Both the position numbers and the translations under genes were made by a program. Source: an uncultured Gemmatimonadales bacterium (GTDB taxonomy: Bacteria; Gemmatimonadota; Gemmatimonadetes; Longimicrobiales; Longimicrobiaceae). Taken from it: DNA of 64,000 nt. The stretch lies in NCBI GenBank assembly GCA_963716255.1, contig OY970303.1:320001-384000 (forward strand), given 5' to 3'. The notes beneath the pieces are model-generated. The model saw only the letters and a list, made by a program, of their open reading frames with translations. It was not told where the DNA came from and ran no database searches. Below, piece by piece: positions 29,201 to 32,200 of this stretch; within the stretch, counting starts at the first letter, position 1; every line of letters begins with the position of its first letter.

Positions 29201-32200
29201 ACCGGCACCGCCGCGTCCGCCACCATGTACGCCAGGCGATCCGCCGGGTAGCCGGGATCCAGCGGGACATACGCCCCGCCCGCCCGGAGCACGCCCAGCA
29301 GCGCCACCACCAGCTCCACCGAGCGCTCCATGCACACGCCCACCCGCGTCTCCGGGCCCACGCCCATCCCCAGGAGCGCCGCGGCGAGCGACGCCGACCG
29401 CGCGTCCAGCTCGGCGTAGGTCAGTGTGGCGCCCTCGAAGGCGACGGCAACGGCGTCCGGCGTGCGGCGGGCCTGCGCCTCGATCAGCGAGTGTAGCGTC
29501 GCCCCCGCGCCATCGAAGGTCTCGGCGGTGTCGTTCCAGGCGGCGAGCCGGGAGCGCTCCGCGTCCGTCAGCAGCGGCAGCGCGGAGATGCGCTCGTCGG
29601 GCGCGGCGACGGCCGCGCCGAGCAGCGACCAGTAGCGCTCGATGAAGCGGTCCACCGTCGCGGCGTCGAACAGGTCCGTGTCGTACTCCCAGGCCAGCTC
29701 GATCTCGTCCGGCAGGGAGCCGGGGCGCTGCTCGGCGCGGGGCATCACGATCACCTGCAGGTCGAACTTGGTGGAGCCGTTGGGCAGCCCCTCCGTCACC
29801 TCTACGCGCGCCGGGCCGAGCGTCGGCTCGGGGTAGGGCGAGTCGTGGAAGCTGAACGCCACCTGGTAGACGGGGAGGTGGTCGAGCGTGCGCTCCGGCG
29901 CGAGGGCGTTCGCCACCTGGCTGAAGGGCATTTCCTGGTGGTCGAACGCTTCGCGCGTCACCCGCCGCACCCGGTCCAGCAATTCCTCGAACGACGGGTC
30001 GCCGGACAGGTCGGCGCGCAGGGCGACGATGTTCACGATCATCCCGATCAGCCCCTCCGTCTCCCTGCGCCCGCGCGCCGCCACCGCCCCGCCCACCACC
30101 ACGTCCTCCCCCGCGCCGGATCGACCCAGCAGCGCGTAGAAGGTGGTCAGAAGCGTGTTGTAGAGCGTCACGCCGCGCGCCCGGCAGAAGGCGCGGGCGG
30201 CGAGGGCGAGCTCCGGCGGCATGTGGAGGCGCCTCGTCGCGCCGTGGAAGCGCAGCACCGGCGGACGGGGACGGTCGGTGGGGAGCTCCAGCAGCGGCGG
30301 CGCGCCGGCCAGCGTCCGCCGCCAGAACTCCAGGTGCCCGCGCGCCGCGGCGGACTCCATCCACGCGCGCTGCCACGCCGCGTAGTCCGCGTACTGCACG
30401 GGGAGCGGGGCCAGGGGAGGCGGCCCGCCCCCGGTCCCGGCCTCGTACAGCACCTTGAGCTCGCGCAGGAACACCCCGAACGACCAGCCGTCGTGCACGA
30501 AGTGGTGCTCCACGGCCACCAGCAGGTGCTCCTCCGCGGCGAGGCGCAGCAGCGTCCAGCGCACCAGCGGCATCCGCTCCAGCTCGAACGGCCGGGCGAT
30601 CTCCTCCGCGAGGTGCGCGCGGACGGCGGACTCGCGCTCTGCCGGGGAGAGCGCGGCGAGGTCCAGGGGCCCCAGGCGCACGGGCCACGGCGCGTGGACC
30701 CGCTGCACGGGCGAGCCGTCGACCGCCGGGAAGCTGGTGCGCAGCACCTCGTGGCGGCGGACGATCTCCTCCAGGGCGTGCTCCAGCGCCGCCACGTCCA
30801 GGGGGCCGAGGACGCGCAGCGCCGCCTGGAAGTTGTAGGCGCGCATCCCGGGCGAGAGCTGCTGCAGGAACCAGATGGCCTCCTGCGCGAACGACAGCGG
30901 GATCGGCCGCCCCCCGGTGCGCGCGACGGGGACGAGCGCCGGCGCCGCGCCCGCGCTCCCGCGGAGCCGCGCCTCCACCACTTCCGCGAAGCCGGCCACG
31001 GTGGGTGACTCGAAGATCGTCCCCAGCGGCACCTCGGTCCCGAACGCCTCCCGCGCGCGGGCGACCACCCGCGCCGCGAGCAGCGAGTGCCCGCCCAGCT
31101 CCAGGAACTCGTCGTCCACCCCCACCCGCTCGGTTCCCAGCACCTCGGCCCAGATCGCGCACAGCACCTCCTCGACCCGCGTGCGCGGCGCGACGTACGC
31201 GCTCCCGGCCGTCCCCTGCGCGGGCGCGGGGAGCGCGCCCAGGTCGAGCTTGCCGTTGACGTTCAGCGGCAGCCGCTCCAGCACCACGAACGCGGACGGC
31301 ACCATGTGCTCCGGCAGCGTCGCGGCCACGCCGTCCCGCAGCGCGGCCGGCGCCAGCTCCGCCCCGTCCCGCGGCACGACGTAGGCGACCAGGCGCGTCT
31401 GCCCCGGGGCGCCGGGGGCGGCATCCTCCCGCGGGACCACCGCCGCCTCGCCGACCCCCTCCTGCTCCAGGAGCGCGGACTCGATCTCGCCCGGCTCGAT
31501 GCGGAAGCCGCGGATCTTGACCTGCCGGTCGATGCGCCCCAGGAACTCCATCTCGCCGTCCGGACGCCGCCGCGCCCGGTCTCCCGTGCGGTACAGCCGC
31601 GCCCCGGCCTCGCCCGAGAACGGGTCCGGGACGAACCGGACGGCCGTCAGCTCCGGCTGGCCCAGGTAGCCCCGCGCCACCCCCCGCCCCCCGATCCACA
31701 GCTCGCCGCCCTCGCCTTCCACGACCCGGTCGCCCCCGTCGCCGCAGACGTACATCTCCACCCCGGGAAGCTCCCTGCCGAGCACGTGCCAGTCGTACGC
31801 CTCTCCCGCCCGCAGCGGGGAGACCGACGCCAGGATGGTCGTTTCCGTGGGGCCGTACAGCACCCACGTCCGCGCGTTCGGAAAGGCCAGCTGCATCTCC
31901 GCGATCAGCTCCGGCTGCACGGCCTCGCCGCCGACCAGGGCCCTGCGGACCCGCGGCAGCGACCCCGGCCCGCGCCGCACCCAAGAAACGACCTCGCGCA
32001 TCAGCGCCGGCACGGCGTGGACGGCGTCCACCTCCGCCAGCTCCCCGGCCAGGCGGTCCACGTCCTTGACCGTGTCGCGCGCCAGCAGGCGCACCTCGCC
32101 GCCCGAAAGGAGGGGGACGAAGACCTCCAGGCACCAGATGTCGAAGGCGTAGCTGGCCAGCGCCGGCGTCACGTCGCCGGCGGCGCAGCCGAAGGTCGAC

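Follow-up and report, generated by a model that had tools for sequence, protein, structure and literature searches.

Does a nonribosomal peptide synthetase (NRPS) gene that lies in the middle of a long Longimicrobiaceae locus start a urea-capped peptide and, if so, where does the chain that it starts lead? The window analyzed here is a stretch of 64 kb (~76% GC) with its NRPS genes on the minus strand. It comes from a genome of 8.42 Mb (G000) with approximately 440 adenylation (A) domain motifs, and it holds 18 of the 25 A domains of a locus of 12 genes (G000:C1:313396-403248) that is flanked by non-NRPS genes. Domains were called with HMMs derived from the domains of this same genome (Table 1). 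Two of the 12 genes are split by frameshifts, g2 at G000:C1:393300-393750 and g12 at 317850-317980; both are probably assembly errors, since the orthologs in the related genome G001 are intact. A further frameshift, at 457100, affects an aminotransferase gene.

The closest relatives are found in Longimicrobiaceae or Gemmatimonadota at 70-95% identity, and their genomes were scored as the same genus as that of the window. The gene at issue, g8, has orthologs in four more genomes; the genes stand in the same order in G001 and G002, where modules have been gained and lost downstream, and also in G010. Approximately 50 kb away lies a second NRPS-PKS locus (G000:C1:450000-501000; L103-L105), which has an acyl-AMP-ligase-like start, no terminal TE, and accessory genes for an HPPD/HmaS-like protein, aminotransferases, a VioC/GntD-like hydroxylase, a type II TE and a cyclic peptide exporter. 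A similar accessory block is located ~12-17 kb from the orthologous locus in G002.

Table 1. Features of the locus; positions are those of the window unless a G000 coordinate is given.
Feature	Description	Position	Strand	Remarks
g3	stand-alone A(Gln)-T gene	G000:C1:385340-387250		outside the window
g4 (part)	four modules	50836..64000	-	includes a second dehydrating C domain
g5	C-A(Cys-like)-T-E	46055..50800	-	next gene starts with an LCL domain
g6	three modules	36112..46008	-	last T, 36217-36423, of the class preceding a ketosynthase
g7	C-A(Gly-like)-T	32753..36091	-	directly upstream of g8; absent in G002
g8	NRPS, A-T-Curea-A-T-E-C(DCL)-T-C*	23221..32742	-	3173 aa, ATG 32742, stop 23221
A1	loading adenylation domain	31228..32721	-	code DILHLGLILK
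T1	carrier, GGHS	30985..31191	-	serine intact
Curea	urea-forming-type condensation domain	29590..30903	-	first C domain of g8
EHHFVHDG	motif inside Curea	30487..30510	-	residues 745-752
A2	Ser-type adenylation domain	27832..29493	-	code DVWHVSLVDK; in-frame palindromic insert near 28936-29130
T2	carrier, GGDS type	27586..27792	-	
E	epimerisation domain	26206..27537	-	core motifs intact
DCL	DCL-type C domain in cis, HHALLDG	24838..26130	-	no A domain behind
T3	A-less carrier	24565..24774	-	GGDS serine kept
C*	shortened C domain, then conserved acidic C-terminal end	23359..24510	-	without catalytic second His (HAAAADG)
g9	C(DCL)-A(Val-like)-T	19697..22981	-	likely next subunit
g10	four modules (basic-residue-like, Thr, dehydrating C + Ala-like, Thr)	6490..19695	-	
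Dehydrating C	behind Thr module, predicted Dhb	11689..12960	-	best solved relatives McyA (2e-102), AmbE (5e-77)
g11	diverged copy of g9	3106..6339	-	absent in G001 and G010
g12 (start)	three modules	1..3092	-	runs beyond the window to G000:C1:313396; no TE

The original prediction placed an EHHFVHDG motif in the first condensation (C) domain after an A-T start, and the motif is indeed there. It occurs once in the window, compared with one match in total over 200 codon shuffles. Of the 458 C-type domains in the genome, four have His as the sixth motif residue and four carry the motif in full; the match is therefore not a product of chance. All four full-motif domains sit in a gene-initial A-T-C-A-T unit. 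The three other starters of this type in the genome (L006, L007, L008) share the A1 code DMFNNGLTYK; L007, a compact two-gene, TE-ended cluster of three modules, would be the easiest of them to express.

Yu and van der Donk report that EHHXXHDG is confined, within MIBiG, to urea-forming (Curea) domains, that residues E744, H746, and H749 of SnaA are necessary, and that the Curea domain of modular NRPSs always stands behind a loading A-T (PMC11212132). By motif spacing, E745, H747, H750, and S754 of the g8 domain are the equivalents of SnaA E744, H746, H749, and S753. The domain belongs to the first extension module behind the loading A-T, and the T domains on both sides carry the active serine (GGHS in T1, GGDS in T2).

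A phylogenetic comparison gave a concordant answer. In a FastTree phylogeny of 158 C, DCL, and E domains, which includes neither SnaA, SylC, nor PppA and whose loci were retrieved by patterns of which the motif is a part, the window domain falls in a clade of 90 rows (86 EHH, 4 EQH; support 100) together with 15 cyanobacterial domains, while none of the LCL domains of its own locus does so. The cyanobacterial loci (L051, L054, L061, L062, L066, L072, L082, L084, L119) are anabaenopeptin-like by layout and codes only, the layout being the anabaenopeptin starter A-T-C-A(Lys-like)-T-E where the contig shows it; L119 (Gloeothece) came from a tblastn search of plasmids, in which neither PppA nor another characterised Curea protein was among the matches listed. 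Of 35 diagnostic columns, fixed in the 15 cyanobacterial domains and rare in 39 LCL domains, the window domain shares 14, each of the 14 LCL domains of the locus 0-2. Plain identity does not tell the two classes apart: the window domain is 44.6-48.7% identical to the cyanobacterial set and 42.3-48.4% to the locus's own LCL domains.

Judged from sequence, the g8 domain is thus very likely a member of the already known Curea class, and it can be expected with considerable confidence to form a urea bond. The alternative, that the domain is of the LCL type with a deviating motif and forms a normal amide, could draw on the fact that Curea domains are close to LCL domains and are annotated as such (PMC11212132), and on four clade members with an altered motif (EQH), because of which the clade is not uniform. 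The full motif, the clade, the diagnostic columns, and the position of the g8 domain nevertheless all fit Curea, and we regard this alternative as hardly probable at all.

The Curea domain would then join a first amino acid, X, to serine via a bicarbonate-derived urea, giving HOOC-X-NH-CO-NH-Ser, and the E domain would turn the serine of this unit into its D form. The X-NH-CO-NH-D-Ser start that had been proposed is supported by the motif, its position, the tree, the Ser-type A2, and the intact E domain. The best solved relatives of A2 are the A domains of Txo1 and Txo2, which we take to be Ser-specific. Its code, read like all A-domain codes here by motif anchoring and not by alignment to a reference A domain, is 9/10 identical to published Ser codes (PMC12283262), so Ser is the likely substrate. 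The D configuration is likewise predicted because T2 is of the GGDS type and the E motifs are intact. X would keep its free carboxylate, since no PEARL gene was found: the only PF04738 match also has PF14028, a LanC neighbor, and precursor-like ORFs, whereas a PEARL is PF04738 without PF14028. A class I lanthipeptide cluster (LanC, full LanB, ~eight precursor-like ORFs) lies between the NRPS genes of a hybrid cluster at L133:300-6700.

The identity of X is less clearly indicated. The A1 code falls into the commonest code class of the genome (DIxHxG, 57/443 A domains), for which the literature searched held no substrate match. Its nearest published code, DILHLGCTFK (7/10), belongs to a Leu/Ile/Val/Hpg section, and the A1 codes differ among orthologs (DILHLGLILK, DIFHFGLILK, DMFNNGLTYK); matches of A1 among PDB structures gave no pointer to a substrate, and Gly, Glu, or Hpg/Phg may be the one used. 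The palindromic repeat element that is inserted in frame in A2 (window 28936-29130) occurs in ten further places of the window and at ~401 loci genome-wide, 78 of them inside A domains.

The serine partner had been considered unusual. Indeed, no Ser-linked ureidopeptide was found in the literature searched, which included few subscription papers, and the parts of the ureidopeptide literature used here name Lys, Arg, and Thr-derived Dhb as inner partners. However, the partner is freely exchanged: in the Curea clade (88 domains in 83 loci), the inner-partner codes include Leu, Val, Thr, Ala, Gly, Gln, and Lys, and codes of the Ser type are present in L010 and L011, which are orthologs, as well as in the unrelated L076. 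The claim is therefore weakly supported, and the D-Ser partner is a modest variation.

In its domain order, g8 resembles AptA/ApnA, the anabaenopeptin starter, described as A-T-Curea-A-T-E with a conserved D-Lys as inner residue; an epimerised inner residue and a next subunit that starts with a DCL domain are also common to both (PMC5311044). The A-T-C-A-T-E layout originally assigned to g8 is correct for its first six domains but incomplete: an A-less tail of a DCL-type C domain, a T domain, and a degenerate C domain (C*), which comes after E, had been missed. The inner residue of g8, from its Ser-type code and its relatives, is predicted to be Ser and not D-Lys, so that a ring through a side-chain amine at this position would not be expected. 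The anabaenopeptin synthetase is a six-module cassette that has a terminal TE and makes a cyclic hexapeptide, whereas the g8 locus has 25 modules, the extra DCL-T-C* tail, and no TE.

SnaA (threopeptin, Stackebrandtia nassauensis) likewise has EHHXXHDG in the first extension module behind a loading A-T, with both T serines (PMC11212132); in contrast to it, the g8 locus has no PEARL, PKS, TE, or MbtH gene but does have an E domain and a long downstream line. The pseudovibriamide (PppA), pseudobulbiferamide, and chitinimide (ChmA) systems make urea-capped linear peptides with Dhb from dehydrating C domains, and they too use a small hydroxy inner partner (Thr; Ser in g8). There, the inner Thr becomes Dhb, Cys becomes a thiazole, and the lines are colinear and TE-ended, whereas the g8 locus has a predicted D-Ser, no Cy domain, and no TE. 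A predicted Dhb-forming domain is present here, as the original prediction had it; Dhb in ureidopeptides is already known from these three systems.

Curea-type domains are, on sequence grounds, common in Longimicrobiaceae: a DNA pattern for the motif matched 49/71 genomes of the family and a reversed control pattern five, these being pattern matches alone, some with atypical middle residues. Outside cyanobacteria, an intact E domain behind the inner module was found among the 88 domains only in the g8 orthologs. The variant EQHxxHDG replaces EHHxxHDG in L020, L021, L023, and L046:1890-3209. In nine of the 88 domains, all from Acidobacteriota (L046, L052, L056, L065, L068, L077, L080, L081, L086; a tenth, L045, is frameshifted), the Curea domain stands behind a complete DCL-A-T with a Lys-like code (DTEDIG[TS]IVK) and more modules upstream; L046 has two Curea-clade domains in series. 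This arrangement breaks the published position rule. It represents one event, because all of these domains fall in one subclade, and it suggests branching through Lys, with peptide on both sides of the urea. The g8 domain is not of this type.

What follows the urea start depends on how the locus is read. A single product of at least 18 modules with Dhb and D-Cys, as originally proposed, is doubtful and was not supported in that form: g8 most likely begins an assembly line in the middle of the locus, the genes ahead of it seem to close with a hand-over to a PKS, and a TE is absent. On a T-before-KS profile, the last T domain of g6 takes rank 26 of 492, whereas 20 known cases, left out in turn, take ranks 1-13 of 473; no KS was found in the locus. 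The E domain of the Cys module (g5) is followed by an LCL domain, one of two such cases among 35 E domains (a DCL domain follows 32/35). Two genes, g3 and g8, start with A-T; the locus opens with an LCL domain in its first gene and closes with a T domain in its last. On these four features of its domain sequence, the 25-module locus is read as not being one colinear line. It contains no TE, reductase, MbtH, or PEARL gene, nor any PF00975 match between 313 and 404 kb, and a comparison of docking ends gave no unique subunit order; the genome has a single MbtH-like protein, encoded elsewhere (G000:C1:5771305). Approximately ten other gene ends of the genome have carriers of the T-before-ketosynthase class without an adjacent KS gene; pathways seem to be dispersed over its chromosome.

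Most likely, therefore, if the domain order is a guide, g8 starts a second assembly line inside the locus. This line would run g8-g9-g10-(g11)-g12, include the Dhb-forming domain, and add Val-like, a basic residue, Dhb, Ala-like, and so on, before release by a partner encoded elsewhere; a C-A-T-TE gene at 5762047, with an N-terminus of the matching kind, is a candidate for that partner. g9 begins with a DCL domain, which fits a D-Ser donor, but gene-initial DCL-like domains without an upstream E are common in this genome, so this is weak evidence for the order. D-Cys may or may not enter the urea product; g5 could instead donate to g9. In G002, g8 lies directly behind g6. Just outside the window, next to g3, another gene-initial DCL-like domain (G000:C1:384003-385295) has the motif HHIVLEG and a long branch; it is conserved in four relatives, with HHILLEG in G002. 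Downstream of g8, a diverged duplication (window 3106-10100 versus 13100-23000, 93-96% identical) adds a Thr module and the g9 copy and is absent in G001 and G010; its degree of divergence rules out an exact repeat artefact. Neither the tail nor the place of g8 in the middle of the locus is put down to an assembly artefact, the layout being the same in independent assemblies.

The tail itself is conserved in related genomes. DCL-T3-C* is present in G000, G001/G012, G003/G005, and G004/G010, while G002/G009 has DCL-C* without T3; with this query, no ortholog was found in four other genomes of the genus (61-96% complete). The cis DCL domain is intact in 5/5 genomes and the GGDS serine is kept in the 4/4 that have T3, whereas C* is shortened and its second His is missing in 5/5. 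Pairwise dN/dS, estimated by the Nei-Gojobori method and biased by high GC3, is 0.30-0.34 for DCL, 0.18-0.37 for T3, and 0.39-0.46 for C*; for comparison, five control C domains gave 0.21-0.32 and the Curea domain 0.24-0.38. These values (0.18-0.46), with the retained T3 serine and cis DCL, indicate that the tail is maintained under purifying selection, C* somewhat loosely. An AlphaFold model of T3-C*, made without an alignment, had a mean pLDDT of 40 and was set aside.

Most likely, as the orthologs suggest, the tail adds no residue, since one ortholog does without T3 and C* is incapable of condensation. It would be either skipped or used to pass the unit ending in D-Ser on to the g9 DCL domain, and would meanwhile hold the C-terminal docking end. 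To this whole picture, a urea-D-Ser start, a second line, and a tail without an added residue, we assign a probability of roughly 0.55. Its main rival keeps the same urea start but treats DCL-T3 as a working A-less module: T3 would be loaded in trans, for example by g3 or another A domain, a third residue would follow D-Ser, and C* would be a non-catalytic spacer or docking platform. The intact cis DCL domain and a tail dN/dS like that of other domains agree with this, as does the kept T3 serine: of the 298 T domains located ahead of an LCL-type C domain, T3 alone has GGDS (which is found in 34/34 T domains preceding E). DCL-T3 is also the only tightly linked C-T unit without an A domain in the genome. 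In addition, g3 and T3 occur together in G000, G005, G010 (where g3 is divided between two contigs), and G012, and G009 lacks the two of them, but this contrast opposes one close clade to one genome and is not independent evidence. A precedent exists in CmnI/VioI (capreomycin/viomycin), where a carrier without its own A domain is likewise followed by a C domain; however, the CmnI C domain keeps HHXXXD (PMC12400406), which C* has lost, and one ortholog of g8 has no T3. Moreover, g3 has a T domain of its own, and T3 is the lowest-scoring T domain of the locus. Trans-loading is accordingly possible but rather unlikely.

Convergent assembly, in which the tail would join the upstream chain (g1-g7) and the urea-capped unit into a branched or two-headed peptide, would also explain the missing TE in a locus that has no reductase either. 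The genes keep their order, and three long contigs have the urea gene in the middle of the locus; the basic-residue-like A code in g10 could offer a side-chain amine; and the Acidobacteriota relatives have a mid-line Curea domain behind a Lys-coded module. Yet g6 ends in a PKS-type hand-over carrier while a KS is missing from the locus, A1 does not look like a Lys domain and is preceded by no C domain, and the catalytic His is missing from C*. The absence of a TE also loses weight, since the approximately ten such carriers without an adjacent KS gene show that lines ending without a TE are usual in this genome. Such a convergence seems decidedly improbable. Slightly broader, and still improbable, is the idea that the tail is a working junction, accepting either a residue loaded in trans or the entire chain from upstream; the TE-less 25-module locus would then make one branched urea-capped peptide from two starts. 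If that were true, it would, together with the Lys-preceded Curea domains of Acidobacteriota, point to lines that grow a peptide around a urea bond without a PEARL.

By its sequence, g8 points to an uncharacterised urea-capped peptide with the predicted start X-urea-D-serine; the urea chemistry itself belongs to a type already known. Only two features might come as a surprise to a specialist: that the A-less tail is maintained, and that the locus is non-colinear and lacks a TE. The tail lends itself to tests of how modules without an A domain are retained or put to use. The g8 Curea domain offers a compact substrate for a Curea structure, the EHHXXHDG motif being absent from the five best-matching solved chains inspected. 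Some anabaenopeptins are reported to inhibit metallocarboxypeptidases (PMC5311044). A terminal residue with a free carboxylate beside the urea is common to anabaenopeptins and the predicted g8 product, so that a similar inhibition by the latter may be guessed at by analogy. No ureidopeptide from the phylum Gemmatimonadota was found described in the literature searched, and the analysis suggests that Longimicrobiaceae are a rich source of such peptides.
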